A stretch of 64,000 bases of DNA from Auanema rhodensis. Its lineage: Eukaryota; Animalia; Nematoda. Position 1 is the first letter of the stretch. The number at the start of each line of letters is the position of its first letter. The stretch lies in contig OZ059896.1 of the NCBI GenBank assembly GCA_964057225.1, positions 15,562,001 through 15,626,000 on the forward strand. The letters are read 5' to 3'. The position numbers and the translations under genes are program-made. The notes beneath the pieces were generated by a model, which was not told the origin of the DNA, made no database searches, and was given only the letters and a program-made list of their open reading frames with translations. This document shows, one piece after another, positions 7,213-33,936 of this stretch.

Positions 7213-7491
7213 TTGTATGAGGAACGGAAGAAGGAGCCACCCACAATTAAGAAATGGAGTTCAGCACTTAAATTGGCATTGGGATTAGAAGATAATTCTC
7301 CTACAACGCCAGCAAAGCCTTATCATGTGCCGATAAGGTATCACAGCACCATACCAGTAACAGAGCCAAAGAAGAGAGTTTCGAAGAGTCAGATCCCGGA
7401 CCCAAACTTCGTGGCACCAACAGTACCAGTCATCCATAAGAAAAGACCGTCAACAGTTATTGGGACTACAAGTAAGAAGCTAGAACAATAG
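7213..7491 (+). CDS. Basic/Pro-rich orphan ORF or exon in element A
   Basis: Frame open from 7102, overlapping the previous ORF; non-ATG start, so probably reached by splicing or frameshift if real. Confidence 0.35.
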   Translation: MYEERKKEPPTIKKWSSALKLALGLEDNSPTTPAKPYHVPIRYHSTIPVTEPKKRVSKSQIPDPNFVAPTVPVIHKKRPSTVIGTTSKKLEQ

Positions 7492-7856
7492 TAAAAATCC
7501 ATAATTTCTATATAAAAATCACAAAAAGTATAATAACATTTTCATAATTTTCATCTAAACTTGAACCTATATATGATTTTTTTTTCTCATTTAAGTAAGA
7601 CATAAAATTCTACACAAATTATTGTACATTTTTATTTTTTCACTCTCATAAAAATATTGTATCAATAACCAAAATTTCAAAATAAAATTATACATCATAC
7701 TTGGAATCTTTCAAAAATCACTGCAAAGTTTTAATCAACAATCTTCATCATTTTTTTTCACCTAACTGGTCAAAAAGGAGGCGACAAAAAGGAAGGAACA
7801 GACCGACCTAGTTTTAAAAAGGATAAAAAGGACAGAAAACAGTAACAAAGATAACA

Positions 7857-8459: not shown

Positions 8460-8662
8460 AAAGAACTTTTGAAAGATTCCCAGTATGATATATGATATAT
8501 TATTTTGTAATTACATTGTTTTCCTTTATTTTTTTCTCATAAAATTGTTCTGTATTATCAGTATTCTTTTATTTTTTGAAACATTTCATACAACTTTCAC
8601 ATTTGCATGGAATTTCACTTTCTCGATGTAGCTGAGGTCAGCTACTTTTTCGATATTAGGCA

Positions 8663-9080
8663 TGTTCCATACGTGTCCTATAAGTAGAGCGATTGACAAC
8701 GTCAATCGCTTATAAAACGGAACATTATAAAAACAAATAGCTGACGCTACATTTGAGAAACAGGAATTCAATGCAACAATGAACGAACACTTTTTCATAT
8801 TAAGTTTAATTAAAGAAAGCCCAATTCAAGCGGAACCAAGTTCCGCGGACCTGATATAACCACTTTTTATGCTCGTAAGGAATACTATATAAGGTTTCCT
8901 TACGAATCCTTTGGGCTGCGACTAGGAATCATTATGTAACTTTTATTATTGTAATTTGTATACTTTATCATGAATAAACCTTTCTCTCTATACTCTTTAT
9001 CATTTATATTATATTTGGAAGAAAAGAAAGTAATTCCATGTGGTTACCCAGCCGGAACCCTGGGGAACCACCATGGAACG
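8663..9080 (+). repeat. Element A 3' LTR (418 bp, full length)
   Basis: TGTTCCAT...ATGGAACG; contains TATATAA (~8886) and AATAAA (~8973). Confidence 0.9.
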
Positions 9081-10596: not shown

Positions 10597-10663
10597 TGTC
10601 GCGATAAGCGAGTGAGTTTGTATAATTTTTTTATCTTCAACAATTGTTTTATTTGTTTCTCCT

Positions 10664-10701
<38 letters not shown>

Positions 10702-10951
10702 TTCTTCTTTCTTCTAACTTCCTAAGTAATTTTTATCCATACCACATGTTGTGTTATACATGTGGCATGACTAACTCTTTGTTTCAGGCTGACGACCGCC
10801 CACGAGAAGAGATCAGTCTTACATTTTCAACGTTCGCAGTCAGTGATTTTATTCCGTGCTTGTCTTGTTAATTCATCAATAAACCCTTTTCTACATATTC
10901 GCTTTGTGTTTTACTTCCAACCATACTATACACTTGTGGTATAACGCCACA
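10597..10951 (+). repeat. Element B 5' LTR (355 bp, contains (CT)n)
   Basis: Direct repeat of 20001-20355. Confidence 0.97.
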
Positions 10952-10954
10952 AAT

Positions 10955-10966
10955 TGGTGCATCGGC
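10955..10966 (+). promoter_or_regulatory. Primer-binding site, probably tRNA-Gly
   Basis: TGGTGCATCGGC, 3 nt after the LTR. Confidence 0.75.
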
Positions 10967-11229
10967 TAGTTCAGATCTTAGCCGCTTCAAGTCCCGCGTG
11001 GCAGGTGAGATACAGCTCAAACCAAGCGTGTTTGAGCAAAAAACATACTTAATAGAAATCGTGGCAACCATTAGTCCACGTCAAGTCACACCAAAAAGAC
11101 TTGAACCATAAGCAAACTCTGCAGACAGAAACAGAGATTCACTATCACATATACTGTGATCACCAAACAAACAAAAAAAAAAGAGAAAGTAAAAGGAATA
11201 TAAGCGTTATTCCTACATCTACGACAAAA

Positions 11230-14200
11230 ATGTCACTCCTTTTTGTCAATCATATCAAACAGTCTAACCAGTTTCTCGGAGAATTACTTACACGATACGA
11301 GATGGAAGTGAAGGACCTTCCTGGTATTCTGGTAGATTGCGACTTCCACACTGAGGAAGAAGAGGAAACCCTCTCTTGCCTTATCATTCGCTGGACAAAA
11401 GTCCAACACCAATTCAAAGAATCGTTGAAAAATCATCAAGATAACGAGAAAAAATTCCAAAAATTTTACGAAGCATCAGACAAAACGCTTCGTAAAGCAT
11501 TAGACGAACAGTACATCGCCTTCACATCCGATGAAGACTTTGAACCCAACATTAAAAAGGTTCAAAACGCCATTATTGAGCTTGACGAACACATCATGAA
11601 AGCCGAACGCATACTTAGAAAGCTGAGAAAAACGCTTCATAAGAATGAATCTGAGCACAACAGCAATCGCTCAACAGAAAACAATGAAACAGAAAACAAA
11701 TCGAATGATCAATTTCTGGAAATTATCAAGTCATTCCTACACATCCAACAAACTAGTATCCAAAAACCAGCGATGTCGCTACCTACATTTGATGGCAAAC
11801 CAGAGAACTTCAAATCATTCTGGGGCCGTTTTGATAGACTTGTTCATGATAATGAACAGTTTACAACCTTAGAAAAGGTAAACCTACTCTGTGAAAGCCT
11901 CAAAGGCGATTCACAAATAGCAATCAGAGGAATAGAACCCTCTGCTCAAAATTATGAGCTTATGCGTGAAGCATTAGTTTCTGAATTTGGAGACTATTCG
12001 TCGGATATCAACTCTCTTTTGACACAACTACGTAATTTGAAATTTGCAAGCAATAATGCAAAAGCATGCAAAGAAACATTTGGAGAAACCAAGGCACTTA
12101 TCAGGCAAATTGAAGCAGCCGGAGCTACAGTATCCCGCGAAATGTGTACCGCGATGATTCTCAACAAATTCCCATACCACATCGTGGAAGACATTCTAAT
12201 TCATCCAAACAACTACCATTCTACTAAAGAAATGCTGACAGCTGTAGACCACAAAATCTATTCCTTTTTTCTAAAAGAACAAACAAGAAATAGTCATGAA
12301 CAAAAGTTTCGAAATCACAAAGACAATGTCACATCTGTTTCACATAAAGACAGCACTGCAGAACAACGGAAAACCCAAACTTGGCCATGTGTCTTTTGCG
12401 ACTCATCCGAGCATCGTTTTTATCAATGCACCACATTTGAAACACCAGAGAAAAGAAGGTACCGCATTCGCGGAAAGGCCATCTGTTGGATTTGCTTTTC
12501 CGATAAACACAAAAGTTCGGAATGCAGAAAACAAAAATGTCGCAATTGCCAAGGAGATCATAATTCCGCCTTGTGCTCACAAGGAAGAAAAAGTGTACAA
12601 AATATCCAAAAAGATAAAGAAACTCCCACAATTAAAAAAGATCAGGCTTTACTGATCACCACAGAAGAATTATTGAATAAAAAAACAACAGAATATAAAC
12701 AAGAATCTGACACTAATAATCGAATCCCTACTGAGGCACTTAATGCACCAGTATCGCTTAATCACATTGCTGACACACATAATATTGAAGAAAGTCAAGT
12801 AATATTACGAACAGCAATGGCGAACATATACAACCACAATAGTAAAAAATATGAGCAAGTACGCATGCTCATAGATGAAGGATCCATGAGATCTTTTATA
12901 TCCAAGGACCTATCTACAAGATTAGGACTGCCCATTCTTGGTTCTCAGAAGAGAACCTTTTACGGCATTGGAGCATTATCAGAAACACATGAAGTTGAAG
13001 ATGTTAAGGTAATTATTGGAACCTCAACTGGATCCCTTATCGTAACAAAACTGTTCACAAAACCCATGTTAACCACACCTATACGGTGTCCTAAACTATC
13101 TAATGAAGACTTAAAATTCATACAAAGAAGAAAAATTAAATTAGCCAATCCAAAAACAAACGGAGAATCATTTACTCCGGATATACTGATAGGTATGGAT
13201 AGATACAAACTATTCATGCACTTAAACGAAGAAACCGAACTCCCCTCACGTATGAGATTGAAAAACTCGGTATTCGGCCACATGATACATGGGGAAGCTC
13301 CTCTTCCCGATGATAATACACAACAAGAAGTAATATTATGCTCTACATTAGAAGAGATAACAAAAGAAACCTCTCATAAAGAACTCCTCACTAATCTGTT
13401 TGAACTGGATTCTATCGGCATCAATACAGAAAATGCCAACGCAGACCGCACTATTGATTACTATGAAGAATACTCAAAAGATATAAAAATTGAGAACAAC
13501 CGTATTATTGCACCGTTCCCGTTAAAAAATAACTTCAAAAATCTCAAAAACAACAAAATGCCCGCGTACCATAGATTCGTATCCCTATGGCGAAAGTTAC
13601 TGCACAATCCAGAAATGCTCTCACACTATACTACAACCATTGAAAGTTACCTCAAAGATAACATTGTCGAACAAATTCCCAACAATCACCAGGAGCCTTT
13701 AGAGTTTTATATGCCCCACCATGGGGTTTGGAAGCCCAGCAAGGCTAACCCTCTCAGAATCGTTTTTGACGCCTCCGCTAAACAGAAGGATAGCCCATCG
13801 TTGAATGAGATAATACACACAGGACGATCATTTATCACATATATACACGACATCATGATCTCCTGCAGAACAAGACCAATAATAATAACATGCGATATTA
13901 AAGCCGCATTTCTACAAGTACAATTGACAGAAAATCACAAGAATTTATGCAAATTCTTTTGGATAAAAAACAAAGAATACCCAATATCACACAATAATAT
14001 CATAACCCTTCGATTCAACAGATTACCATTCGGTATCACTGCATCCCCCAGCGTATTGAACATGGGCATAAAATGGTTCTTAGAATCAAAAGTAGACAAC
14101 CCATTAGCTATGGAAATCCTGCACAACTTATACGTCGACAATATCATTCTTACAGCAAATACAACCGAAGAAGCTATAAAGAAATGTAAAGAAACCCAAA

Positions 14201-17200
14201 CACTATTCTCAGAAATAAACATGCATGTTCGCGAATTCTTGTCAAACGATGAACAAGTAATACAGAACCTTCCTGAAGAAGACAGATATCCGAACATGAC
14301 AACCAAAATACTTGGCATATCTTTTAATAAAGAACACGACTCCTTCATTATCCCAATAAAAATAACAAAGACTCACACAAGTTACACCAAGAGAATTCTA
14401 CTCAGTCAGTTACATTCAATATTTGATCCCATTGGATTATCAGCACCAATACTGTTACCCCTCAAACTTATCTTGCGAGAAATCATTAGCACAAAATTAT
14501 CATGGGACCAACCCATTGACTCAAACAGTATCAAGCAATGGGAACAACATATTACTCAGATTAACAATAAGCAATTAACCATGAACAGATATTTTAAGTT
14601 TTCTGAACATGAAACACAGTTATGGGTCTTCGCTGACGCAAGCAACCAAGCAATGGCCGCTTGTTCATATTTCCAAACAAATGGGAAGATTAGTTCTCTG
14701 CTAAACGGGAAATCACGCATAGCACCCAAAAATAAAACTACAATTCCACGATTAGAGTTACTAGCCATTCGTTTAGCTGTACGAATGGCATTATCTATCG
14801 TCACCATATGTCCGAAAATAGCGAAAGTTAACATTGTGAGCGATAGCAACATCGCACTATCATGGATTGTCTCACAAAAATCTCTCCCACTGTTCATTAA
14901 TAATCAAACAAATACTATAAAGAAACAGCTCAAGCAAATCGAACAAATATGTTGCAATATAGAACTATATCACGTACAAACCTCGTTCAACACAGCAGAC
15001 ATCGGATCTCGAGGTGCAGACATGGAAAAACTACAAGTTTCCGACTGGATTGAAGGCCCACATTGGTTAACTAAACTTTCCGTGCATAACCCTCTGACAT
15101 CACTCGGCTCACCTAACAACTCGAGCAGGAATAACGCAGAATTAAAATCGGAGCATCACAATGTTGTCCACATAATCATAGACAATCCTCCAACCCATGA
15201 TATTTGGAACATTCGTGAAAACTATGATGACGTAATCAAAACAATGACAACCGTAGGAAAATTATTCAAGAAATGGTTTTTCACAGTCCATCCTAACGAC
15301 GCCAACAAGTTGCAAAAAATAAAACATCTCACATCAACAGACACGCACACTGTTGAAGACATCAACATTATTGAAAAAATTTTGATCAGTAACAGTCAAT
15401 CTAATATGAGCCTTGATGACTTACAGCAAAGACATATAAATCTAAAATTCTTCAAAGATACATGGGATATTTATCGCGTAAGAAGCCGTTTACAAAATAC
15501 TCTTCTTCCCGAAGAGACGAAAAACCCTATATTCCTTCTTAAAACAAACCCCATAGTTAAAAAACTGATCAACAAAATACACAAAGACAATAATCATCAA
15601 GGCAAACATTTCACGCTTATTCAACTCAGACAAAAGTTCTATATACCAAAAATAACCGGAGTCATTAAGCAAACATTGAAAAACTGTGTGACATGTAAAA
15701 GATTTCAATCACACCCTTATGAATTACCAGATATGCCATCGCTACCAAAAGATAGAACGATTCTTACAAGAGCATTCTTTTCAACAGGGTGTGATCTTAT
15801 GGGCCCCTTCACCCTTCGAAATGGGTCTAAAGTCCATATCTGTCTGTTTACATGCATGACAACTAGAGCAATTCACTTAGAGGTAGTCACCAATCAATCC
15901 ACAGTTGCTTTTATGAATGCATTCACTAGATTTATATCACGCAGAGGTACTCCAGAAATTATGCGTAGTGACTGCGCAGGAAACTTTATATTGAGCTCAA
16001 AAATATTAGAAACCCTTGAAAAAACATCGGATTACAACGAAAGAAGCTTACTAAACACACTAGCACAACAAAAAATTAAATGGATATACAACACTCCATT
16101 ATCACCCTGGAAAGGTGGATGTTGGGAACGTTTAGTAGGTGTAACCAAAGCTTCACTCAAAAAATGTTTCATTCCTAGTCGAATGTCCCTGGATGACTTA
16201 CACACAGCCATTGTAAAAATAGAAGCTATAATTAATACACGCCCACTCACCCATCCACACCCAGATAATTTAGATACTCTACCCATAAGGCCAATTGACT
16301 TTTTAACATCAGCCATAAAGTTTTCATTACCTGAAAACAACGCGGATACTCATATATTTGATATCCATAGCGATATTCAAACGATTCAATCAACAGAGCA
16401 AGCGCTAGAAGCGCTTCAATTATCAGAAGACTCAGCATCTAAATTTTGGAAACGATTTCAAGAAGAATATCTAACAAGCTTAAAAGATATATTTAAACAT
16501 AAACACCATAGAAAGAATCACACAAACATCTTCCCCCAACCAGATGAAATAGTATTGATACAAAACGACATGTTGCCACGAGGAACATGGAAACTAGGTC
16601 GCATCATTGAAACAATCACTAGTTCAGATGGCAACATACGTTCAGCAAAAGTCGCAACAAGCAATGGAAACATAATTATTCGATCCATTAATCAGCTCTA
16701 TCCACTAGAGATAAGATGCAACACTAACAGTAACAAAATCATAGAAGACAACTCACACATAGTTCAAGAAAATAATAGCTCAACAGATAGAACCCCACAT
16801 ACTGATACCGTATTAGACAACATACACTCCGATCATCCTATAGAACATACAGATGAAACAATACATGAGAACAATAACATAAATGATAGCAACCATAATT
16901 ACGATATTGCATATGAATCAGATAACTCTCAACATGATAATACATACACTCCAGAAACAGAGAATAATGAGGATGCAACAAACGATCGACCTCAAAATAA
17001 AACAAAACTATCATCAGTGAAAACAGCAAAATATACAGAACAAGATGAGGTCACTGAGAAGGAAAATATAAAAGCCTTCCCACTAAAAATGTCCTATGCC
17101 ACACACCAAAGAAAAAATAAAATAAACCCAAAAATAGCAGCTGACATAATGAAAGCCCTTTCATTACCGATTATAATTACTTCGACATATGCCGAAGAAA

Positions 17201-19161
17201 TCAATAGTTGCAAGGACTCTAACATGTTCACCACAAAACTTATAGCGAATCCTCATTGCTCCCCAGAAATGGCAACATGGACAGTGATAATAACCATTAT
17301 GGCAGTTACCCTCATAGTCTCTTGTCTATGCCGCATGGGTTACAGCCAATATAGATATAAGACATGGTCCAAAAACACTCAAACCATGCTCAACATCATG
17401 AAATTAAAACATAAAACAATCTCCGAACAAGAAGATCACGAAACTGATCAAAAAATAACAGAAGACCACAATGATACGTTGCAATTAAAACAAACGAACA
17501 CACAAGACGCTAATATTGTGGATCATGAAACCTTTCAAAAGCATATTTACCCTATTTTAAACCATACGAGAAAGCCACCAAAATTCTCTCTCTTTACTAG
17601 AGGGTCGCAAACATCTTTACCATCGTTACTGGCAATCATCTTGGCTTTATGTATTGGAAGCTGCAGTTCATGTTCCGATGTTCATGTTCAACACTTCGTT
17701 AACATACGATGCGATGACAACTTAGCTTGTTATCACGAATACAGTCAAGATATCATATTTTCTCCCGGAACAAAACAATTATGCATTACCATAACGCATT
17801 CTAATCATGAAATTGGTCAATTTAAAATAACTAAACTATATACTGAACATGTCTGCCAGAAGAATACTAGATACTTCACTAGACAGACAACCGTCAACAT
17901 ATTGAGCATATTACGATGCCGTCACCGGGGCTCGTGTGACGGAACATGTGAAACTAACTCGCTCCATAATAAAATCGAGGAACTACAACCATATACGTTC
18001 CCTTCACAATCAGGTTGTTTCACATCGTCAGCGAGATTTTACACATGTCCTATGATTTGGACAGATCCGTGTCTTTTCTACAAAATAGAGCATATACCCG
18101 TCACTGAGGAAGTATACGAAGTCTATACTTGTGATAGTTGGTCCACCCAAACCGTATTTAATATAGAAACAACATTACTCCAGCAGAAAAATAATTACAA
18201 TATCACTCTACAACCTTACACGAAAAATCGTGAACAACTTTTCAATATAACAACGTTATCACAATCACAACCTCCTCCCGAAATGTACACAAAATTATTT
18301 TTTTCCTCCAAAGAAAACACGTACATTACGGATATACACACAAAGGGAATAATTCAATGTGCAACAGAGGAAGCCGCATTAAAACATTTTAATAACTGTA
18401 CAGTATCCTCATTCTGCCCTTGCACATTCAATAGATTTGATGAAATAAAATGTAGGTGTGATACCCCTACTTTTGAAAAAATGTCCAATACATCAGACAT
18501 AACATCTCCTAACCAAAACTTTAAAACTAAAGATAACACGTTATCATTCTCTACGAATTTAGACGAAAATTTAGTTACGGTCGATTCATCCCTATTCTTA
18601 AACTCAGTGATTTTCTCCAACAATTTGCCTTGCGCACCTGCCCTGACAAAACTATCAGGTTGCTACTCCTGCGGGCAGGGTGCATTCGCAGAATTCCAAT
18701 GCCTTACGGCAGAAGAAACATGGATTTCTATCGAATGTCAAAAAGAAGTATTCATGATAAAATGCTCTCCAAAAGTAGCAATCACAAAAGTAACAATGAA
18801 AAGAGAAAATTCTCAGATTGATGAATTATGCTATACCACATGCGACAATAAAAAAATTAAGATCATTATTAAAGGAATATTACATCACATAGCAAGCATA
18901 GATGAAATAAACGAAAGTGACTCAAGTAAGGGTACAGAATCCAAATCCATTGACTTTGCCCCAATCTTCAAGTTAATTTTATCAAAGTTGGGAATCATAT
19001 TGATAGGCGTTGCAATAACCGCCACCATAGGATATGTGGCATGTACACCCATCATGTACTGTGTAGTTTTGAATACAGTCTTAACCACACAATGGATAGC
19101 TACCAGGATATTCACACTGTGGATAAAATCAAAAGCCTTATTTCTGGATCAAAGATTTTAA
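11230..19161 (+). CDS. BEL/Pao Gag-PR-RT-RNaseH-IN-Env polyprotein
   Basis: Gag LPTFDG...FW; three CCHC knuckles; protease LIDEGS; RT YVDN; RNase H FADAS; integrase HHCC, DLMGP, SD, WERLV; Cys-rich phlebovirus Gc-like env (RCRHRGSC, GCYSCGQGA) with C-terminal TM. First ATG 11230; ORF track starts at 11101. Confidence 0.95.
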   Translation: MSLLFVNHIKQSNQFLGELLTRYEMEVKDLPGILVDCDFHTEEEEETLSCLIIRWTKVQHQFKESLKNHQDNEKKFQKFYEASDKTLRKALDEQYIAFTSDEDFEPNIKKVQNAIIELDEHIMKAERILRKLRKTLHKNESEHNSNRSTENNETENKSNDQFLEIIKSFLHIQQTSIQKPAMSLPTFDGKPENFKSFWGRFDRLVHDNEQFTTLEKVNLLCESLKGDSQIAIRGIEPSAQNYELMREALVSEFGDYSSDINSLLTQLRNLKFASNNAKACKETFGETKALIRQIEAAGATVSREMCTAMILNKFPYHIVEDILIHPNNYHSTKEMLTAVDHKIYSFFLKEQTRNSHEQKFRNHKDNVTSVSHKDSTAEQRKTQTWPCVFCDSSEHRFYQCTTFETPEKRRYRIRGKAICWICFSDKHKSSECRKQKCRNCQGDHNSALCSQGRKSVQNIQKDKETPTIKKDQALLITTEELLNKKTTEYKQESDTNNRIPTEALNAPVSLNHIADTHNIEESQVILRTAMANIYNHNSKKYEQVRMLIDEGSMRSFISKDLSTRLGLPILGSQKRTFYGIGALSETHEVEDVKVIIGTSTGSLIVTKLFTKPMLTTPIRCPKLSNEDLKFIQRRKIKLANPKTNGESFTPDILIGMDRYKLFMHLNEETELPSRMRLKNSVFGHMIHGEAPLPDDNTQQEVILCSTLEEITKETSHKELLTNLFELDSIGINTENANADRTIDYYEEYSKDIKIENNRIIAPFPLKNNFKNLKNNKMPAYHRFVSLWRKLLHNPEMLSHYTTTIESYLKDNIVEQIPNNHQEPLEFYMPHHGVWKPSKANPLRIVFDASAKQKDSPSLNEIIHTGRSFITYIHDIMISCRTRPIIITCDIKAAFLQVQLTENHKNLCKFFWIKNKEYPISHNNIITLRFNRLPFGITASPSVLNMGIKWFLESKVDNPLAMEILHNLYVDNIILTANTTEEAIKKCKETQTLFSEINMHVREFLSNDEQVIQNLPEEDRYPNMTTKILGISFNKEHDSFIIPIKITKTHTSYTKRILLSQLHSIFDPIGLSAPILLPLKLILREIISTKLSWDQPIDSNSIKQWEQHITQINNKQLTMNRYFKFSEHETQLWVFADASNQAMAACSYFQTNGKISSLLNGKSRIAPKNKTTIPRLELLAIRLAVRMALSIVTICPKIAKVNIVSDSNIALSWIVSQKSLPLFINNQTNTIKKQLKQIEQICCNIELYHVQTSFNTADIGSRGADMEKLQVSDWIEGPHWLTKLSVHNPLTSLGSPNNSSRNNAELKSEHHNVVHIIIDNPPTHDIWNIRENYDDVIKTMTTVGKLFKKWFFTVHPNDANKLQKIKHLTSTDTHTVEDINIIEKILISNSQSNMSLDDLQQRHINLKFFKDTWDIYRVRSRLQNTLLPEETKNPIFLLKTNPIVKKLINKIHKDNNHQGKHFTLIQLRQKFYIPKITGVIKQTLKNCVTCKRFQSHPYELPDMPSLPKDRTILTRAFFSTGCDLMGPFTLRNGSKVHICLFTCMTTRAIHLEVVTNQSTVAFMNAFTRFISRRGTPEIMRSDCAGNFILSSKILETLEKTSDYNERSLLNTLAQQKIKWIYNTPLSPWKGGCWERLVGVTKASLKKCFIPSRMSLDDLHTAIVKIEAIINTRPLTHPHPDNLDTLPIRPIDFLTSAIKFSLPENNADTHIFDIHSDIQTIQSTEQALEALQLSEDSASKFWKRFQEEYLTSLKDIFKHKHHRKNHTNIFPQPDEIVLIQNDMLPRGTWKLGRIIETITSSDGNIRSAKVATSNGNIIIRSINQLYPLEIRCNTNSNKIIEDNSHIVQENNSSTDRTPHTDTVLDNIHSDHPIEHTDETIHENNNINDSNHNYDIAYESDNSQHDNTYTPETENNEDATNDRPQNKTKLSSVKTAKYTEQDEVTEKENIKAFPLKMSYATHQRKNKINPKIAADIMKALSLPIIITSTYAEEINSCKDSNMFTTKLIANPHCSPEMATWTVIITIMAVTLIVSCLCRMGYSQYRYKTWSKNTQTMLNIMKLKHKTISEQEDHETDQKITEDHNDTLQLKQTNTQDANIVDHETFQKHIYPILNHTRKPPKFSLFTRGSQTSLPSLLAIILALCIGSCSSCSDVHVQHFVNIRCDDNLACYHEYSQDIIFSPGTKQLCITITHSNHEIGQFKITKLYTEHVCQKNTRYFTRQTTVNILSILRCRHRGSCDGTCETNSLHNKIEELQPYTFPSQSGCFTSSARFYTCPMIWTDPCLFYKIEHIPVTEEVYEVYTCDSWSTQTVFNIETTLLQQKNNYNITLQPYTKNREQLFNITTLSQSQPPPEMYTKLFFSSKENTYITDIHTKGIIQCATEEAALKHFNNCTVSSFCPCTFNRFDEIKCRCDTPTFEKMSNTSDITSPNQNFKTKDNTLSFSTNLDENLVTVDSSLFLNSVIFSNNLPCAPALTKLSGCYSCGQGAFAEFQCLTAEETWISIECQKEVFMIKCSPKVAITKVTMKRENSQIDELCYTTCDNKKIKIIIKGILHHIASIDEINESDSSKGTESKSIDFAPIFKLILSKLGIILIGVAITATIGYVACTPIMYCVVLNTVLTTQWIATRIFTLWIKSKALFLDQRF

Positions 19162-19457
19162 AAGCATAAGAGAAGAATTTCTTGTGGAGATAAAATTAAA
19201 AATTAAAAATTGAAATAATAATGAAACAAAAGAAAAAGAAAGCATTATGTACGAATATAACCATTGTAATAAAACAATATCATAGTTTTTCTTTCTTTTC
19301 AATTTATGGTAGTATCAAGTTTCTTCTATCCAACTCAGTTACATAACACATAACCTTTTGTACAGGCTCTAAAATTCATTGTATCTGTAACAAGATAACC
19401 TAAACACACCATTGTACAATGAACCAATAGATGATAATCAGCGTTTAAAGTCCAGAT

Positions 19458-19970
19458 GTGAACATGTATATAAGGATGCAGCTCATGTCTTTCCTATATT
19501 CCATGAAAATGGAAGATAGTGTCTCGAATATAATTGAGAATGCTTCCTTTGAGGAAGAGCTCAAAAAATATTCCCATCTACCTAACACTGCTGCCAATCT
19601 GAGGCAACTAATTGTGCTTGAAAAGAGGCTCTACGAGCACCTAGCTAGCGCGGTGAACCATCTATCCGAACGACTGGACAATATTCAACATTCGTTAAAT
19701 CTGAAACTAGACAATTTGACCATTCAGACTGCTCCTAAAGCTTCATGTGTATTCTGCAATAAACCGACAGCTGATGGGCACCGTACTGCGGCCTGTCCGA
19801 TTTATCCTTCCTCACCGGAACGCACTCTCCGTCTTCATGAACTGGGGTTATGCATCAGATGTTTGAATCAAAAACATCCAGCGATATGCGAGGTATCCTG
19901 CTATAGATGTAAGGCGGATACGCATCATGGAGTGGTTTGTGGAGATATAAAACGTAAAAGACCTTTGTAG
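19458..19970 (+). CDS. Accessory triple zinc-knuckle ORF of element B (likely a spliced exon)
   Basis: Coiled-coil-like segment, then CVFC..H..C, CIRC..H..C, CYRC..H..C and KRKRP. Confidence 0.75.
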   Translation: MNMYIRMQLMSFLYSMKMEDSVSNIIENASFEEELKKYSHLPNTAANLRQLIVLEKRLYEHLASAVNHLSERLDNIQHSLNLKLDNLTIQTAPKASCVFCNKPTADGHRTAACPIYPSSPERTLRLHELGLCIRCLNQKHPAICEVSCYRCKADTHHGVVCGDIKRKRPL

Positions 19971-20000
19971 GCCTTCTTCTCATTCCCGCATTGCCGGGAG

Positions 20001-20067
20001 TGTCGCGATAAGCGAGTGAGTTTGTATAATTTTTTTATCTTCAACAATTGTTTTATTTGTTTCTCCT

Positions 20068-20105
<38 letters not shown>

Positions 20106-20355
20106 TTCTTCTTTCTTCTAACTTCCTAAGTAATTTTTATCCATACCACATGTTGTGTTATACATGTGGCATGACTAACTCTTTGTTTCAGGCTGACGAC
20201 CGCCCACGAGAAGAGATCAGTCTTACATATTCAACGTTCGCAGTCAGTGATTTTATTCCGTGCTTGTCTTGTTAATTCATCAATAAACCCTTTTCTACAT
20301 ATTCGCTTTGTGTTTTACTTCCAACCATACTATACACTTGTGGTATAACGCCACA
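20001..20355 (+). repeat. Element B 3' LTR
   Basis: Direct repeat; preceded by GCCGGGAG. Confidence 0.97.
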
Positions 20356-24452: not shown

Positions 24453-24503
24453 TTTCCTTTTTCTCATATTTTCATATAGTTTATCATCTTTAGTTACCTA
24501 TAT

Positions 24504-24869
24504 CGTTCCATTATGCTCCTACGTATATTGAACAGACCATTGTAGTCTGCTCAACTACGCGTATAGTATTCCATAAGTGTAGCGGTATGGAAACAGAGCA
24601 TAAGGATTACATAAGATAAGGAAATATATAGGTTTATTATACACAATACAATATCATTACAATACATTAACACAAGGATAAAGTAAACTACATTTACAAG
24701 ACAAAGACTAATATATAAGATTAACTAAGTTAGATGCAAACCGTCCATGGGCTTGCAAAGGGGCGAACTCCCGAATAGGGGCATGAGGGAAGGCGGTGCC
24801 ATTCCTCATTCCTCTAGTCGGTCTGGCTCTAACCCTGCAGTTACATATATAGAGTCTCCGAATGGAACG
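24504..24869 (-). repeat. Element C 3' LTR (366 bp)
   Basis: Direct repeat of 33517-33882; preceded on the minus strand by PPT-like GAAAAAGGGCA. Confidence 0.96.
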
Positions 24870-25573
24870 TGCCCTTTTTCAAAGATTGTCGCGACCTCGC
24901 GATATTTTAAACAAAAATTTGGGCTTATATGTAACTGAGTTTTAGAGTTCAATTGTTTTAGCTTCACAATAACTATAGTATGATAGAGTTTTAGTTAGTA
25001 TACAAACAAAATTACAATAATTTATAAGAAGGGTTCAATATAATATGAAGGGACGATGAATTAGAATATTATTAATTTCATAAATTAATTATCTTAATAT
25101 TCAAGCATTTCCTAATAGAGATTGTAGAATAAAGGGGCTAGTAATGAATGGGAATATGTTATTATTTTGACTAATGGTCTCAAGAAGTACTCATTTCTAA
25201 ATTGAACCGAGATTATGATTTAATAATGTGTCTCCATATGTCTCCCAGAGTGAATCCTTGATTACTAATGGAGACTACCACTTAAGATGAAATTGTGGTT
25301 GATACGCCTACCAGTGTTCATCTCATCTTATTTGGAGAGGCACATGGAGCTCGGATGGTTGTCAAAATGTCCTCTAGTCCGCATAGGATTACGGTAACTT
25401 GGAACCATTAGTCATAACATCTCCTCGTTTAGAATTTGCCTTATTTTTCCTTTCTCAATCTCTATTAAATGCTATTTTTATTTTGAATGTTATTTAGCAT
25501 TAATTTTTTTTTTTTTTTTTAATTCATCGTTATTTTGTTACAATAATTTAAATAACGTAGCATTATCTTGTTG

Positions 25574-26656
25574 TTATTCTTCTTCATTCCTCGGAAGCCA
25601 TATTTCGTCTTCATTTTCATCTTCTGGCTCTGTATCTATGCTATCCTTGTTGTTCCTGTTGATCACTTCTATTATTTCGATGTCGCTATCTTCTTCTGCT
25701 TGACTTTCTCGAAACCTTGCGCGAGTGTTGTAAGAGATGTTTTGTGAAGCAGGAGAGAAGATTTTCAAGTTATCTTTGTGGATATCTTGTAGTTTTCCTG
25801 ATGAATTTCTGATTTGAACTTTTGATCCTTCTACGTTGATGACTTCGCATGGTCCATCATAGCTTTTCCGAAGCTTTTGGCCGATTTGGTGTGATTTTAT
25901 AGTCGTCATCACCATGTCGCCCGGTTGAATGTCTCTATGGTGTGCTCTTTGCGTTCTATCTTTCTTCTTTTTCGCATTTTCTTGATTTTTAGCTATGCGG
26001 TTCTTTATTATTTCGTCTCTCTTGTCCATATCTGGTCTTCTTTGGAGTAATTCTTCAGAAATTTCTTGAATTTTGGTGATCGTTTCTGGTAATTCAGCGT
26101 CCATTGACATTCTGCATTCTTTACCGAATAATGCAATGTATGGCGCAATCCCTGTAGTCGCGTGCTGAATATTGTTAATAGCAAAAGTGATTTTTGGTAA
26201 TACAGTATCCCAGTCACTAAGGTCCTCTTTTAAGTAGTGGGTTAATCCTTCTTCGAGGGTTCGGTGAAGTCTTTCCACTTGTCCATTTGAGTTCTTTTGG
26301 TGTGGTAGTGTTGGTTCATGTTTGATTCCAAGTTTAGTACACATTTCTTCGAACTTTTTAGATACAAAGTTTGAACCTCTATCGGTGATCAAGCGATGGG
26401 GTGGTCCAAAAATGTAAACGAAATGTCTTAGAAATCGATCAATTGTGATTTCCGTTGTTATTTGTGGTACAGCAATTGTTGTTGACCATTTTGTAAATGC
26501 GTCTTGCATGGTAATGACGTAGGTACAGTTTCTTTTTGAAGGGGGAAATGGTCCCATTACGTCCATGTGGACTCGTTCAAATGGCTTGCTTGGTATCTCA
26601 AAATGACCTATTGGTTGTACCGTCATGGAATGTGGATCTTTTTTTTCTTTGAGCAC
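25574..26656 (-). CDS. Integrase core and C-terminal domain of element C (frameshifted from the upstream polyprotein)
   Basis: HMDVMGP, ITDRGSNF, GQVERLHRTL catalytic motifs, GPY/F-like YDGPC; the HHCC finger is at the end of the upstream ORF. Confidence 0.93.
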   Translation of the reverse strand: MLKEKKDPHSMTVQPIGHFEIPSKPFERVHMDVMGPFPPSKRNCTYVITMQDAFTKWSTTIAVPQITTEITIDRFLRHFVYIFGPPHRLITDRGSNFVSKKFEEMCTKLGIKHEPTLPHQKNSNGQVERLHRTLEEGLTHYLKEDLSDWDTVLPKITFAINNIQHATTGIAPYIALFGKECRMSMDAELPETITKIQEISEELLQRRPDMDKRDEIIKNRIAKNQENAKKKKDRTQRAHHRDIQPGDMVMTTIKSHQIGQKLRKSYDGPCEVINVEGSKVQIRNSSGKLQDIHKDNLKIFSPASQNISYNTRARFRESQAEEDSDIEIIEVINRNNKDSIDTEPEDENEDEIWLPRNEEE

Positions 26657-29600
26657 ATTTAATGCAGTTCTTGATGAATATAGTAATGTCGTTCTGCATA
26701 TTTGTCCAATAGAATCTTCTTAGAATTGCTTCTTTTGTTTTAATAATTCCTTGATGTGCTGCAATTGTAGGATCCTCATGAAAAACTTTGATTATTTCCT
26801 CAATTATGGGGTGTTCTTGTGGTATTACGATAGCGGGTTGTGGCTTTTTGTCTGTTGGTTTTGTATAGAGCAAGTCATTTATGACACAATATCTGTCATT
26901 AGCTGTCATGTTCTTTTGTGCTCTATATTCAATCTCCGCTATCGTCCGTTTAATCCAAGGGGTGCTTAGTTGAATTTCCTTTATTGTTGGTGTATTTATG
27001 GCGTTAATGTGAATTTCTTCCATTTTCTTCTTCTTTGTTTCCGGCTTAGCATCGTTAGCTTCTTCACCTATATATCGAGATAGAGCATCGCATACTTTAT
27101 TTAATTGGCCTGCGCGATATTTTATTTCAATATCATATTCTTGGATGACCAGCTGGAACTTCGCAAGACGACCAAATAAGTCTCTGCGTGTCATTAAGCT
27201 GGTAAGAGGTCGATGGTCCGTAATACATATAGTATGAGTTCCAAGAATGTATGTACGGAATTGATTTAATGCATATACAAGGCCTAATGCTTCTATCTCG
27301 ATTGGTGCGTAGTTACGTTCGGCTTTAACTAGTTTTCTGCTTGCAAATGCGATAGGGTGTAGATTTTTCAGAGGTTGTTTTGGATCTTCCGGTTGTAATA
27401 ATACAGCACCTATGGCGATGTTACTACCGTCGCTTTCAACTATAAACAAGCGGTCCGATTTAGGTGGGCTTAAAACGGGTGCCTGTATTAAACTTCTTTT
27501 AAGGAGGTCTAAAGCTTCTTGATGTTTGTTTTCCCATTTGAATTCAGTATCTGCCTTTGTCAGATCGTATAAAGGGCTTGCGATACGTGCAAAATCTTTC
27601 ATGAATTTGCGAAAGAATCCAACCATTCCCAAGAATGCTCGTACACCTGTTGCATTCTTTGGTGCCGGATAATCTTGTATGGCGGCGACTTTTTGAGGGT
27701 CAGGTTTTATACCTTGACGTCCTACAATAAGTCCTAGAAATTTCACTTCTGGTTGAGCAAAAGCGCATTTCTTAAGCTTTATCTTCATTCCCAATTCTTC
27801 TACTGCTTGCAGTAAATCATCGATATCTTTGAGATGTTGTTCTCTTGTATCAGATATAACTAATAGATCGTCCAAATAAACAAATAGTTTACAAGAACAT
27901 TTACTTTGCAAATACCTTACTGCTGTTTGAAAGGTATGAGGGGCTCCACAAAGGCCCATCGGCATCCGTTTGTACTGGTATGTGCCGGATGTGGTCGTAA
28001 ATGCTGTTAGTGGTCGATCTGATTTTCTCAAGGATATTTGAAAAAATCCTGACACTAAATCGAAGTTTGAGAAAAATTGGGCGCCTGCTGCCAAATCAAC
28101 TATGTCAGAAATGCTTGGAATGACATAAGTTTGCTTGCGTGTGACATTATTTAAAGCTCGAAAATCTGTCACAAACCTATACGTGTCATCTTTCTTCTTA
28201 ACTAGTACTACAGGGCTATTAAATAGAGATGTAGAAGGCTCTATTATGCCTTGCTCAAGCATTTCTTTGACTTGTTTTTCAATTTCTTCCTGTTTTCCTA
28301 AGGGAATACGTGTTATTCTCGGCTTTGGCATATCCATATCTGTTCTCAATGGTATGGTATGCTCTATAGGACCTTTAAATAAGCCTATTTTCCTGTCCTC
28401 GTTAAGAAATGCCTCACGATGGCTTTCAATTATTTTTGTAAGCTCATGTTTTTCTTCTTTCGTGAGATCAGCATTCTCTAGATCAAGATCTTTTATGAAG
28501 TCTCTTGGAAAATATGGTAGTTTACTCTCCCAATCGGCCTCTGGCGGAACATATGGTAGAATTGGCTTATGCTTAAAGGGTTCACAAGCCGGAATTTCTC
28601 CAATTATTGCCTGTCCGATGACTGAATTAGCTTCCATAGCTATTGTTTCATCGGTATTGTTACGGAACATAACATATACTCCACTGGTATCACGAAACGC
28701 AGTTGGATATAATGATTTTAATGCGCTTCCACTATCCCCTAAGACAACCACTTCGTTAGATTCTAGTGGTTTATCTGTCTTTATTGGGATAGGTGCCTCT
28801 TCATCAGGCTTTAATGTTTTTGTTCTTAAATTAATGATATTCACAGTTATCTCCGTATGCTTAATAGATTCGTTTCCTATTAATGGGATGGCATTGTTTC
28901 CAATCTCCAACCTCTTCTTGGATGGTTTAAGGCTGACGTCGATGTTTTCGCTGTCAAGCGCTTTCATGAAATCTAGTCCAATTAAAGCGGGAGCAGGACA
29001 GTCATGATCGTTTGAGACCAAAAAGGTGTGTTCGATCTCGTAACCGGCAATTTCAATTACAAGATTTATCTTTCCATAAAATGTGAAAGTGGACTTGTTG
29101 GCTGCCATCGCTACTAAATGTCTCTTCTTGACATTTTCGGCCATGTTCAGATATTTGAGGGTGGAGAGCCTAACATATGACACTGATGAGCCTGAATCCC
29201 ATAAAGCTAAAATCAGTTTATCTTCAACTGATATATATATTAATGGTAACTTTGTTTCCGCTGATACAATAGAAGCAACAAATGGTATTGCGATTGGAAT
29301 AAATGTTACTAAAGCAGGATAGTATTGCTTCATGATGTTATCTGGCATCTGTTGGTCTGGGCGGCTTACAAGTTCCAATGTTTCTTCATAGCTTGGGGGC
29401 TCATTATCTATTTCGTGGACATGCATTACGGTTAGTGGAGTGGCTCTGAAGAACCAAAATTTAGCAACAACGAAAAGAATTATTAATACTGCGGCAATCG
29501 TAACCATTGATCCTATGAAGATGAGTGTTCTCTCAATTGATCCTATTAGAAATTGCTTTACGCTAGTCCAGGCGGAAGTTGTGAACTCAGCTGCTTTAGA

Positions 29601-31586
29601 GATATAGTCACTGCCCTTTTTCAAAAGATTAAAGGCGGACGTAATTTTTGGATCGTTGTGAATAGTATGTAAAACATGGTTCTGTCGTATGGATGCTAAA
29701 CTTGCTCCATATGCAATAGCTGTTGACATTGAGTAAACTCTCAATGATAAATTGGTGTATAAGTTAGCGCCTGTGAACTTTAAAGGTGTTAATTGGTGGT
29801 ATTGCGCTTTATCAAAGAGTGATATTGGTTTTACTTCAACCGATCCATTTATATTTATCCATTCTCCATTTTGATAGTATACATCTGTGGGTACATGTTC
29901 GCAATCTATCTCTTTTCCATGTGTTAATAAGTCTCTTGATCCTGGAGCAGCAAAATATAATCTCTCATCTTCTGTTATTACTGGTGTTTCCAAATAGCAT
30001 GTATCATTGATCTTATGATTATGATAAACAGCTTTAGGTTGAAGAGGTAGGCATATATGAACATGAACTATATCGCTGCCTACGAAACGGGCTGCAATAT
30101 CCTCTCTTCCTAAAATAGTCCTCATTGCTATTGTAGGTTCTATGTGTAAAATAGAACGCCATAGCTCGAGGTATCTATTTTGAATCTCACATATGGATTC
30201 ATAAGATTCCATGAAATGTTTCTGTAGCTCTTCTTGTATGAGTGTTGTTGTATATTGTAGATGATCTTGAGCTATTCTGCGAGATACGTTGAGGTTGAAT
30301 TGTATTTCGTTGTTCACTTTTGACGCTGTATACGTTGCCTGAGCCTGAATTTCTCTGGTTTCTACGGGTGGAGATGATGTTCTTTGTTTCCTTAAGATTC
30401 GTGACGCCGTGTCAGTGACTGTTGCTAATGTTGTTGGCGAGAGAGTCGTAGTTATCGCGGCTGTTGTCGTCTCAACTGTGGTTGTCGTCGGAATCCGAGT
30501 CGTATGGCTTTTAGTTGTCTCCTGAACTAGTGAAGCGGGTTTGTCCGTTGTTGTCGTTAATGACAGTCTTCTAGTCAGATAAGGCGGTGTTTCAATATCC
30601 TCTAACAGTGGTAAAAATGTTTTTATAAGTAGCTGGCGTGTATCTGCGCTTGGGTTTTGAATGCGAGGGTGGGGCCCTATCGATATACCGTAGTTAGAAT
30701 CTTTATCTCGATATAATTTGTTGGTATCTGGCACATTGATTGTTAATTGTCGGAACTTTTCATCATCTACGGCTGCTGCTGTTTTATTTGGCCTTATTAC
30801 TCGCAATGTCATCAAGTTATGGTATAAGTAAAGAGTGTTTCTAAGTACTATACGCTCATCAGCATTGTCAGTTGTTAGAGTTGGTCGGATCGGCGGCATG
30901 TTCACAAAGGATTTTAAAACCTCTTGCCTTGATGGTACCGACAGATTGTTTTCAAATATTACCGGTGTATAAGCTAACTCCATCGCTATGCTTTCGGCTC
31001 TTTCACGGTAGGATCCGTCTTTTTCTAGCAGTTTTTCGTCAAATTCGTGTGCTGTTAATCTGTCACCTATCTGTTCTAATAATTGTTGTGAGGTTAAATA
31101 CCGTATAGCGCCGCGAGTGGTTGCTGCCAGTTCCTTTTGCGCAAGAAAATAAAGTATTGCTTCCTCAGGGTCGTGTATTTCGTATGTTTGAAGGAAACGT
31201 TGTATGGATTTATCAGATACGGGACTTCTTAAGAAGAAATAAAACTTCTCGGGATGTGCTGAAACCCAGTCAATAATTGAATATGAAGGGTTGACAGCTC
31301 GTCTGGCCTTTATAAGCGGTATTATCTTTGGAGTTGAAGCTGAAGTTTGAATATTGTAGTCCTGAATATAGAAATCAGGGTCCTCCTCGGTGTTGTCCGG
31401 AGGTGAATACGTGCCTTCTCGAGGAATGAAGGTTTTCTCGACTTTGGGTTTTACCTCTTGTTCAGGCTCTTCAATCTGAACACTGAGGAGTCGAGTGCGG
31501 CTTCTGGTTCGACTGGCGACTGCGATGTCGTCACTGGACTCAGAAGGGTATAGAGCAGGGACGGCCGAAGAGTATCTTCGTGCCAC
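26598..31586 (-). CDS. Polyprotein: unknown N-terminus, Thr-rich linker, gB-like glycoprotein C-half with TM, protease, RT, RNase H, integrase zinc finger
   Basis: RKQR furin-like site; LQY...ICEIQNRYLELWRSILHIEP...AARFVG...C...CY...P gB domain III/IV pattern; TM LIFIGSMVTIAAVLIILFVV; LWDSGS; YLDD; ESDGS; H...H...CIKC. Confidence 0.9.
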   Translation of the reverse strand: MARRYSSAVPALYPSESSDDIAVASRTRSRTRLLSVQIEEPEQEVKPKVEKTFIPREGTYSPPDNTEEDPDFYIQDYNIQTSASTPKIIPLIKARRAVNPSYSIIDWVSAHPEKFYFFLRSPVSDKSIQRFLQTYEIHDPEEAILYFLAQKELAATTRGAIRYLTSQQLLEQIGDRLTAHEFDEKLLEKDGSYRERAESIAMELAYTPVIFENNLSVPSRQEVLKSFVNMPPIRPTLTTDNADERIVLRNTLYLYHNLMTLRVIRPNKTAAAVDDEKFRQLTINVPDTNKLYRDKDSNYGISIGPHPRIQNPSADTRQLLIKTFLPLLEDIETPPYLTRRLSLTTTTDKPASLVQETTKSHTTRIPTTTTVETTTAAITTTLSPTTLATVTDTASRILRKQRTSSPPVETREIQAQATYTASKVNNEIQFNLNVSRRIAQDHLQYTTTLIQEELQKHFMESYESICEIQNRYLELWRSILHIEPTIAMRTILGREDIAARFVGSDIVHVHICLPLQPKAVYHNHKINDTCYLETPVITEDERLYFAAPGSRDLLTHGKEIDCEHVPTDVYYQNGEWININGSVEVKPISLFDKAQYHQLTPLKFTGANLYTNLSLRVYSMSTAIAYGASLASIRQNHVLHTIHNDPKITSAFNLLKKGSDYISKAAEFTTSAWTSVKQFLIGSIERTLIFIGSMVTIAAVLIILFVVAKFWFFRATPLTVMHVHEIDNEPPSYEETLELVSRPDQQMPDNIMKQYYPALVTFIPIAIPFVASIVSAETKLPLIYISVEDKLILALWDSGSSVSYVRLSTLKYLNMAENVKKRHLVAMAANKSTFTFYGKINLVIEIAGYEIEHTFLVSNDHDCPAPALIGLDFMKALDSENIDVSLKPSKKRLEIGNNAIPLIGNESIKHTEITVNIINLRTKTLKPDEEAPIPIKTDKPLESNEVVVLGDSGSALKSLYPTAFRDTSGVYVMFRNNTDETIAMEANSVIGQAIIGEIPACEPFKHKPILPYVPPEADWESKLPYFPRDFIKDLDLENADLTKEEKHELTKIIESHREAFLNEDRKIGLFKGPIEHTIPLRTDMDMPKPRITRIPLGKQEEIEKQVKEMLEQGIIEPSTSLFNSPVVLVKKKDDTYRFVTDFRALNNVTRKQTYVIPSISDIVDLAAGAQFFSNFDLVSGFFQISLRKSDRPLTAFTTTSGTYQYKRMPMGLCGAPHTFQTAVRYLQSKCSCKLFVYLDDLLVISDTREQHLKDIDDLLQAVEELGMKIKLKKCAFAQPEVKFLGLIVGRQGIKPDPQKVAAIQDYPAPKNATGVRAFLGMVGFFRKFMKDFARIASPLYDLTKADTEFKWENKHQEALDLLKRSLIQAPVLSPPKSDRLFIVESDGSNIAIGAVLLQPEDPKQPLKNLHPIAFASRKLVKAERNYAPIEIEALGLVYALNQFRTYILGTHTICITDHRPLTSLMTRRDLFGRLAKFQLVIQEYDIEIKYRAGQLNKVCDALSRYIGEEANDAKPETKKKKMEEIHINAINTPTIKEIQLSTPWIKRTIAEIEYRAQKNMTANDRYCVINDLLYTKPTDKKPQPAIVIPQEHPIIEEIIKVFHEDPTIAAHQGIIKTKEAILRRFYWTNMQNDITIFIKNCIKCAQRKKRSTFHDGTTNRSF

Positions 31587-31998
31587 TTTGGAATCACTCT
31601 TGGTTCGGAAAAACCGCGAGTGTTTCGTTATATGGGGGATGTTGACGTTGAATGAGTGACAAGAAATTCGGGTCGGTTATAGGAAAAGTAAGAAACGTTT
31701 GAAGATTGAGACGTGGCGTCTTTCGCCGAGAATCGTTATTAGATGAGAAAGAGTTTTAAAATCTTGGCCTGAGATCTGGCTCCGCCTATCTACCGTATTC
31801 TCTTTTCTTTATTCTATTTCACAGATGTTCATCAATTATAAATTTTTTTGGTCTTCGCTCTTTCTAGCCTCAATCTTAATACTTTACTCTAATTGAATTC
31901 TTGAAAGTATGAGAGAGATTTTCAGTCGTTTTATGTCCCCTTTTTATGCATAAGAATCTTTATATTTGTAGAGCTGAAAAAAAAAAATAAATCAAAGA

Positions 31999-32532
31999 AT
32001 GGCTTATGAAGGTCTATCGGGAATGACTTTTGTCTTGAGGAAGCTGTACGCTGACCTCGTCTTGTATGATCAAGACGAAGTGTTAGCTTATAGGCCGCAC
32101 CCAGACATAATTAAGATGGTTGGTTAAAACAAAGAAACATGTTATCTTAATAAGAATTTTTAGTTTATTGAGGATTTAAAGATGCATTATCTGGGAAGGG
32201 GATTAGTAAACTTCTCCCTAATGCAGGAAATAGCGGATGAGGTTGCAGCTATCCGGCGATGGTGCCTCACCGACTTGTGCGCGCATTGGTATGAAAACCC
32301 AAATCTGGTCGCATCCCCTTGGAATTGGTATGAGCATAAGTCTCATGATTTTTATGATTATATGTCTAAAATTTTGTTTAAAATTTATTTATTTTATGAA
32401 CAGTCTCCTATGGGCTTATTGCTAAGGACCTCTGCGGATTCGGTGTATTCGCAGTATTTAGAGCCTAGCGATGAGCCCATCTCACAGCCTATAGAATTTG
32501 TGAGACAGTTGCATTTTAAATGGGGCTTTTAA
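31999..32532 (+). CDS. Two-exon antisense accessory gene in element C (~162 aa, unknown function)
   Basis: Exon 1 31999-32118 (40 codons), 45-nt GT...TTTTTAG intron 32119-32163, exon 2 32164-32532 in frame; AATAAA at ~32549. Confidence 0.7.
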
Positions 32533-33503
32533 CAATTGTTTCATATATAATAAATACTTAATTTCACTCATTTGTTCTCTCTCTCTTTTTTTTTTTTTTC
32601 CATAACACAAACTTTGGTCGAGCTTATTAATAAAGAAGGAGTGCGTGCGCCTTGGGAAAATGGCTCATGTGCACGTTATTATTAAAAGCCGTGGGCGATT
32701 CTTTTTCGGAATGATTTTGGCATGCTAATGAGATTCCGAGAATATTTAAAAAGATTGCTCATTTTACTAATGGACTGAGACCAAAGCTCGTTTATAAAAC
32801 GCAATTTTTTTCTTTAAACCATTCTACTAATTTATAGAATATTACAATATGAATACTACGGTAGGTGTGTGGGAATATCTTATGATGTTAGCAACAAAAA
32901 ATGAGCTGAGGAAGGTGACACATTCTACGGAGAAGAAAACATCCGTAGCCCATGTGCTTTCGCCAAAATGACCTGACAGGCAATAAAATTTGTGCCAGGA
33001 TTTTTCGGACTAGTGTGGTCTATTCTCACAATCAAAAAAAAAATAAAAACCGAATAACGGCTCCCGCAAAAATATTTAGTTAGCATGCTCTTTTACGCCT
33101 GAATTTAACTTTCAAATCTCTAGTCCTGACCACAATAAAATATTAAACTTTGTGCGCTTTCAAAATTTCATTCTAACTCCTCGTTGCCAAATAATAATGT
33201 AATCAAAATTTCGTTTGGTGAAATTGTCCCCTATTTCGATCCAAACGTCCTCAAAAAAAAATGCAAGAGAAGCGGTGCAGGATACGGTATTATAAGGGTG
33301 GACACTCAGACGGTTTTATGAGTGGGGACAGCGGGTGAAATTTCAAAATTATGTAGTCCTAGCTCTCTAAAAGAGAGATCCCTTGTACCTGCACCTTATA
33401 CAAGTTGGCGCCCTCATTATGTTGCTAACCGTGGAGGAAGTTTTAATTTAGATATCAAAATATGGACTTTTTATGCGAGTTTTTGCGACAAAAATGAGTT
33501 CGA

Positions 33504-33516
33504 GGTGGAACCTCCA
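33504..33516 (-). promoter_or_regulatory. Primer-binding site, tRNA-Gln
   Basis: Minus strand TGGAGGTTCCACC abutting the 5' LTR. Confidence 0.88.
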
Positions 33517-33882
33517 CGTTCCATTATGCTCCTACGTATATTGAACAGACCATTGTAGTCTGCTCAACTACGCGTATAGTATTCCATAAGTGTAGCGGTA
33601 TGGAAACAGAGCATAAGGATTACATAAGATAAGGAAATATATAGGTTTATTATACACAATACAATATCATTACAATACATTAACACAAGGATAAAGTAAA
33701 CTACATTTACAAGACAAAGACTAATATATAAGATTAACTAAGTTAGATGCAAACCGTCCATGGGCTTGCAAAGGGGCGAACTCCCGAATAGGGGCATGAG
33801 GGAAGGCGGTGCCATTCCTCATTCCTCTAGTCGGTCTGGCTCTAACCCTGCAGTTACATATATAGAGTCTCCGAATGGAACG
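33517..33882 (-). repeat. Element C 5' LTR (366 bp)
   Basis: Direct repeat of 24504-24869. Confidence 0.96.
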
Positions 33883-33936
33883 ATATGGTATACGGTTAAC
33901 TAGAAATGCTTTCGTTTTCCGAGAGAACTGTTAGAC

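Follow-up and report, generated by a model that had tools for sequence, protein, structure and literature searches.

The LTR element described here, from a 64,000-nt stretch of the Auanema rhodensis genome (contig OZ059896.1, positions 15,562,001 to 15,626,000; hereafter the window), is a new family of the already published nematode GAG-ENV-POL kind with a gB-type envelope, and the copy in the window is either a deleted derivative or an assembly gap. The reading we favor, with a probability of about 0.65, is that of an internally deleted copy of a ~12.1-kb gag-env-pol Ty3/gypsy element, in which the lost part likely comprised the capsid, the signal peptide and the N-terminal half of the gB-like envelope (gB N-half). 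A preliminary description, made from the sequence of the window, had noticed a gB-like envelope fused in frame upstream of protease and reverse transcriptase (RT), with no recognisable gag, and had offered the loss of gag and the env N-half, or their supply in trans or by splicing, as explanations.

The window copy is 9,379 bp long and lies on the minus strand (Table 1). It has the structure of a Ty3/gypsy (Metaviridae) element, with an LTR pair, a primer binding site (PBS), a polypurine tract (PPT), a short target-site duplication and a pol that runs protease (PR), RT, RNase H (RH) and integrase (IN). In place of TG...CA, the LTR termini read CG...CG and form part of a 9-bp terminal inverted repeat. 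The reverse complement of the PBS equals the 12-nt Gln PBS given for Clat_errantivirus_4 and Ctro_errantivirus_1. Adding the 2,694 bases discussed below brings the element to 12,073 bp, which falls within the 10.5-13.5 kb LTR-pair spans of Caenorhabditis elements in supplementary file 1 of Chary and Hayashi (eLife 2026, PMC13524379). At 33211-33537, the contigs of several sequencing runs have the PBS and LTR end in common with the window and then continue into other sequence, and in run X2 the LTR depth is ~3x the internal depth; the shared LTR ends and high LTR depth would reflect related families or solo LTRs.

Table 1. Features of the element and its surroundings (window positions; residues are those of the long minus-strand frame)
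Feature	Positions	Strand	Remarks
Tandem array, 490-bp unit of one 5S rRNA and one U4 snRNA gene	2-42679		
Target-site duplication, 4 bp, ATAT	24500..24503		repeat at 33883-33886
3' LTR	24504..24869	-	
PPT	24870..24880	-	
Integrase	25574..26807	-	Pfam H2C2 in long frame; core in second frame 25574-26719
RNase H	27135..27536	-	Pfam
Reverse transcriptase core	27726..28202	-	Pfam RVT_1
Aspartic protease	28962..29231	-	Pfam, residues 816-905, E 4e-4
Second hydrophobic segment, just ahead of protease	29253..29324	-	peak 785-790
PPSY motif	29388..29399	-	residues 760-763; also in P0002
Env transmembrane helix	29454..29528	-	residues 717-741
gB-like C-half (long central helix, beta crown)	29757..30269	-	residues 470-640
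RKQR	30381..30392	-	residues 429-432; RTLR at aligned place in P0002
Thr-rich mucin-like linker	30408..30560	-	residues 373-423
Helical domain inserted in env between gB N- and C-halves	30561..31325	-	residues 118-372
Deletion junction, 2-nt overlap	31326..31328		2,694 extra bases in X1, X2 and X7 contigs
ATG-less open frame on the upstream flank of the deletion	31326..31676	-	residues 1-117
Likely antisense accessory gene, exon 1	31999..32118	+	40 codons from ATG
Intron, GT..AG	32119..32163	+	45 nt, phase 0
Likely antisense gene, exon 2	32164..32532	+	122 codons
PBS, tRNA-Gln type	33505..33516	-	
5' LTR, 366 bp	33517..33882	-	100% identical to 3' LTR

The element is the third of three inserts (24504-33882) that break the 5S/U4 array, in which 40 copies of 5S and 39 of U4 were counted by exact match to a 20-nt start; the familiar nematode case is 5S linked to SL1. 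Its insertion site lies 51 bp past a 5S gene and 54 bp ahead of a U4 gene. The three inserts are different LTR elements, starting at 5146, 10598 and 24504, all within spacers and at differing 5S/U4 offsets, and small-RNA gene arrays are possibly preferred insertion sites of such elements. The second insert is an intact-looking BEL/Pao element (10598-20354, plus strand) with 353-bp LTRs of 99.7% identity; at the end of its 2,701-codon frame (11056-19161) is an env resembling phlebovirus Gc (Pfam E 5.6e-42), an extra 173-codon frame lies at 19449-19970, and the whole is similar to the Atlas virus kind (PMC9094657). The first insert is a 3.9-kb LTR-bounded sequence without RT (5146-9080, plus strand); its duplication is the 4-bp GAAA, its 5' LTR is shortened, and it contains a frame of 210 codons (7827-8459). 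It has the same GGAACG LTR end as the gypsy element and a similar Gln-type PBS, BLAST found no similarity between the two, and it is likely a non-autonomous element using enzymes from a related family. A host exon with an EGF-like domain was also found at 48483-48956 (minus strand).

The long minus-strand frame (26598-31676) comprises 1692 open codons, encoding in order a gB-like block, a transmembrane (TM) helix, protease, RT, RNase H and the start of integrase. As described before, it is open from 31676 without an ATG for ~230 codons, the first Met being residue 232, and PR, RT, RH and IN follow the envelope, each with a Pfam match, the integrase core sitting in a second frame. The integrase frame is broken near 26640, a position at which the contigs of four runs out of four differ from the window, and the break is likely either unique to this copy or an error of the assembly. 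A dUTPase-like Pfam match between protease and RT (residues 954-1027; 28596-28817, minus strand) was discarded as not significant (E 0.061). In the upstream ~450 residues a signal peptide is indeed absent, because hydrophobic windows peak only at 713-732 and 785-790 and none earlier; C6 is the sole Cys ahead of residue 496. The two hydrophobic peaks agree with the TM helix after the gB block and the further segment after PPSY that had been proposed, the latter being likely the Env/PR junction. The Thr-rich stretch is mucin-like as stated (51% S+T), whereas two short motifs carry less meaning than they were given: RKQR is present but is a minimal R-X-X-R basic cleavage motif, and PPSY, though present, was dropped as a family-wide late domain, PPxY occurring in just 4 of the 33 relatives checked.

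The Pfam profile Monjiviricetes_fusion matches residues 473-613 (E 3.1e-15; 55.6 bits against a cut-off of 27), in agreement with the class III gB-like block of the preliminary description, and Glycoprotein_B matches residues 470-556 (E 5.2e-9), under its cut-off of 43. A word-based protein search with residues 440-760 among 1,520 candidates gave a single match, P0002, a protein of Auanema sp. JU1783, which is 49% identical to the window frame over 777 columns from the gB C-half into RT and 37% identical over residues 114-396, the region of the helical insert. The match begins at about residue 114 of the window frame, and P0002 extends further upstream, where it has a Gag-like end, a signal-like hydrophobic segment (156-178), a Cys-rich beta region (181-445) and, ahead of the matched part, an RTKR. 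When modelled, the P0002 ectodomain (mean pLDDT 71.5, pTM 0.47) matches herpes gB in Foldseek (E 1.4e-10) and in VIA (Z 12.0, rmsd 5.5, 352 residues), and the part of P0002 aligned to window residues 470-640 lies within this match. Model residues 30-254 alone match gB 121-435 (Z 11.0, rmsd 6.0, 212 residues). Because the first 254 ectodomain residues of P0002 match this part of gB, the part missing from the window is the gB N-half in the closest relative, as anticipated by the earlier remark that gB domains I/II appear to be missing.

Residues 110-760 were also searched exhaustively, with 245 matches at E <= 0.001, 150 of which were listed. Among these 150, the gB C-half was matched in 146, and 48 of the 146 also match a gypsy PR or RT query (which leaves out Pao), env coming first in all 48. 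Nineteen listed matches are at least 2,000 aa long; in 14, all of them gypsy polyproteins, the gB block precedes pol (in 3 of these the block was placed by the search match, not by Pfam), 4 are BEL/Pao proteins with env last, and one is without pol, Retrotrans_gag being found at the N-terminus in 4 of the 19. Gag, env N-half, env C-half and pol occur in this order in 14 of the 150 listed matches, and the single-frame order of the relatives is gag, signal peptide, gB N-half, insert, gB C-half, TM, PR, RT, RH, IN. All named relatives that were looked up are nematode proteins. In an RT-RH tree, the phylogeny that had been recommended, the element stands beside C. japonica P0019 (support 100/99) in a 13-row clade that takes in C. 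nigoni and C. brenneri polyproteins, its neighbours being Caenorhabditis and Acrobeloides gag-env-pol polyproteins; the tree has 21 rows, 15 of 36 matches covering fewer than 300 residues having been left out, and contains no env-less outgroup. The window element shares with these relatives a class III gB-type env upstream of pol and has no gag upstream of env, so that the copy, if the gap is real, is a deleted derivative rather than an intact member.

The unknown region of ~340 residues at the head of the frame is indeed unassigned, but it is two parts joined at residue 117 rather than a single region. Residues 1-117 are likely the Gag N-terminus or a leader; they have no match in Pfam or, by phmmer, among the fetched relatives, and none of 189 longer candidate proteins scored, which is weak evidence. 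Residues 118-372 fold as a helical bundle in a confident model (pLDDT 82, pTM 0.76, 10 sequences). The preliminary description had considered a capsid at residues 1-340; the location of 118-372 inside the env of P0002 argues against a capsid and for an insert within env, and residues 118-375 have no Pfam match. No capsid fold is present among the structure-search matches listed (BFVD best E 0.46), and no usable Atlas match was obtained. None of 48,161 chains reached Z >= 5; the best of them, a death domain (Z 4.5, rmsd 2.8 over 63 residues), was rejected because helices are commonly arranged in this way. These empty searches are no proof of a new fold. Residues 118-375 match 7 of the 150 listed proteins and P0002, and all five that are named among these eight are from Auanema. 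The stretch that separates the env N-half match from the C-half match measures 15 to 529 residues (median 88, n=70). In P0002, the corresponding segment lies in the middle of env, after RTKR, and is flanked by RTKR and RTLR, so that double cleavage could possibly release the insert, the downstream site being a minimal motif.

The stretch is present in 15 sequencing runs of four studies, 12 of which share half its words or more, and the contigs of seven (X1, X2, X5, X7, X8, X11, X12) were compared with the window, X1, X2, X5 and X7 with flat depth or with all their pieces, and X8, X11 and X12 with the part of their pieces that was listed. The longer copies whose search had been proposed do exist. 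The alignment of X1 record 1 covers 24875-31327 and picks up again at 31326, that of X2 record 12 and of X7 record 20 behaves likewise, and the offset in record coordinates (single contigs of three runs) amounts to 2,694 extra bases, that is, 898 codons at residue 117. The contigs of X5, X8 and X12 diverge from the window at 31327/31328, and those of X11 are too fragmented to inform on the junction. By sequence comparison, the 2,694 bases likely encode the capsid, an internal signal peptide and the gB N-half; the latter two need ~335 of the 898 codons on the example of P0002, and the rest would leave room for capsid and nucleocapsid. The loss of gag and env N-half, one of the alternatives named at the outset, is supported by the extra bases in X1, X2 and X7, their content being inferred; a gag-less Env-Pol is not supported as the design of the family.

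That gag is unrecognisable in the window copy was found again, with no capsid match in Pfam, and tblastn with residues 1-500 of P0002 gave nothing better than E 1.5 for remnants of gag or the env N-half anywhere in the window. This result weighs against a supply of gag and env N-half by splicing or from an upstream frame, an explanation which, together with a divergent capsid at residues 1-340, we regard as hardly probable at all. A strong acceptor-like T-run/CAG at 31974 in the leader speaks for splicing; against it, the seven runs list no splice joint on the sense strand that would bring in gag or the env N-half, the sense strand is free of long frames further upstream, and residues 118-372 align to the mid-env of P0002, past its RTKR. 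As to start codons, just two ATG frames, both short (6 and 7 codons), occur in the leader below 32000.

Among the contig pieces listed for the seven runs, none reads through the junction of the window, and in X2 the long form has a depth of 923.5 compared to ~1,000 over the rest of the element. Both observations count against the short form being a selected, spreading gag-less partner, with Pol made from Met232 or a non-AUG start and Gag borrowed, and so does the broken integrase frame; the frame kept across the deletion (one chance in three), the identical LTRs and the intact cis-signals would fit such a partner, which we nevertheless consider quite improbable. The lack of a bridging piece is equally what would be seen if the locus held a full-length gag-env-pol copy from which the assembly had dropped 2,694 bases, with no deleted copy at all and with the reading of the family unaffected, and this is an explanation to be taken seriously, although a minority one. 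Three homopolymer runs (26639, 31842, 32896) read differently in the window and in most contigs, which points to errors in the window consensus, and the element is multi-copy-like and sits within a 490-bp tandem array. On the other hand, the two sides of the junction meet cleanly with only 2 nt of overlap, self-comparison shows the LTRs as the sole repeat in the window's part of the element, and short-read contigs lose rare variants, so that one deleted copy among many could stay invisible. We hold the gap to be, with fair probability, a real deletion in a single copy; it would likely have arisen by a template switch or end-joining at the 2-nt overlap, the frame being kept by chance. The family, with its identical LTRs, is young.

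On the plus strand of the leader, 31999-32532 is likely a spliced antisense accessory gene. Contigs of X1 and X12, which come from two studies, skip its intron, and those of X2, X5 and X7 retain it, a reading limited by the contigs being strandless, X1 being guessed DNA and X12 only guessed RNA. In the divergent X8 contig, which has an indel inside the intron, 11 of the 12 variants listed for exon 2 are silent; one minus frame over exon 2 also has 9 of 12 listed variants silent, but contains 7 stops. No homologue of 67-214 aa was found for exon 2, which has no Pfam match and belongs to no known family, and an assignment to peptidase S28 was abandoned, the best Atlas value of 0.76 to S28 clusters being weak. 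Sacco et al. (2022, J Gen Virol 103:1739) reportedly described nematode elements that have gag, env, pro and pol in one continuous frame, some of them carrying additional small ORFs. Our narrow literature search found no description of antisense genes in nematode gypsy elements, of 5S targeting by such elements, or of a helical insert within a gB-type env.

The starting assumption that gypsy env always comes last no longer applies, since GAG-ENV-POL with a gB-type env is already published for nematodes: according to Chary and Hayashi (eLife 2026, PMC13524379), nematode, bryozoan and flatworm errantiviruses have gB-type env only, in the order GAG-ENV-POL, and the flipped env/pol order of nematode elements is credited to Sacco et al. 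2022. With nematode gB-type errantiviruses such as Clat_errantivirus_4, Ctro_errantivirus_1 and Cbre_errantivirus_2, as given there, our element shares a Ty3/gypsy pol, a gB-type env that in the full-length form would lie between gag and pol, a tRNA-Gln PBS, a length of ~10-13.5 kb and identical LTRs. Among the 36 nematode rows of supplementary file 1 (PMC13524379), 8 have a Gln PBS and two the exact 12-mer, and none is from Auanema. Unlike the errantiviruses as described in the available part of that article, the window copy is without the 2,694 bases, its env contains the ~250-aa helical insert and the mucin linker, and its leader holds the likely spliced antisense gene, the words "antisense" and "accessory" occurring 0 times in the main text (PMC13524379). 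P0002 is alike in its PPSY and second hydrophobic segment, and differs in keeping the Gag end, the signal-like segment and the gB N-half and in the greater length of its low-complexity linker. BEL/Pao elements with a gB-like env (4 of the 19 listed long matches), which we take to be Tas-like, have the same class of fusogen; they differ in their Pao pol and in having env last, and Peptidase_A17/DUF1759 is absent from the window element.

As in other membrane polyproteins, an internal signal peptide after Gag, combined with a stop-transfer TM after Env, would place Env in the lumen while Gag and Pol face the cytosol. By analogy, the full-length family would make one polyprotein, in which Gag would be kept in the cytosol, the internal signal peptide would thread Env into the ER, and the Env TM would halt transfer, bringing Pol back to the cytosol. 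Three enzymes would cut the parts from one another (signal peptidase, a furin-like protease and the PR of the element), and Gag and Pol would be membrane-tethered from the start where budding takes place. If it is real, the window copy would lack the capsid and signal peptide and could form neither particles nor a working fusogen; with LTRs, PBS and PPT intact, it would be mobile only with a full-length helper.

Tentatively, the element may even be a "complex" retrovirus-like one, in which the lineage-specific insert between two basic sites, either set free or exposed, would act as a separate attachment or fusion-control subunit and a selected, spliced antisense protein would be made in addition; if true, these two would provide partner functions that a lone gB lacks. 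The seeming env-pol element that lacks gag comes down to a known layout and a deletion, and retroelement design is left unchanged. The finding is useful in offering a family that is young, its LTRs being identical, and whose host is likely a free-living nematode, in which the polyprotein topology of gag-env-pol elements can be studied, and an insert with a confidently predicted fold in a gB-type fusogen. The likely antisense gene, if true, would add gag-env-pol elements to the retroelements with accessory genes.
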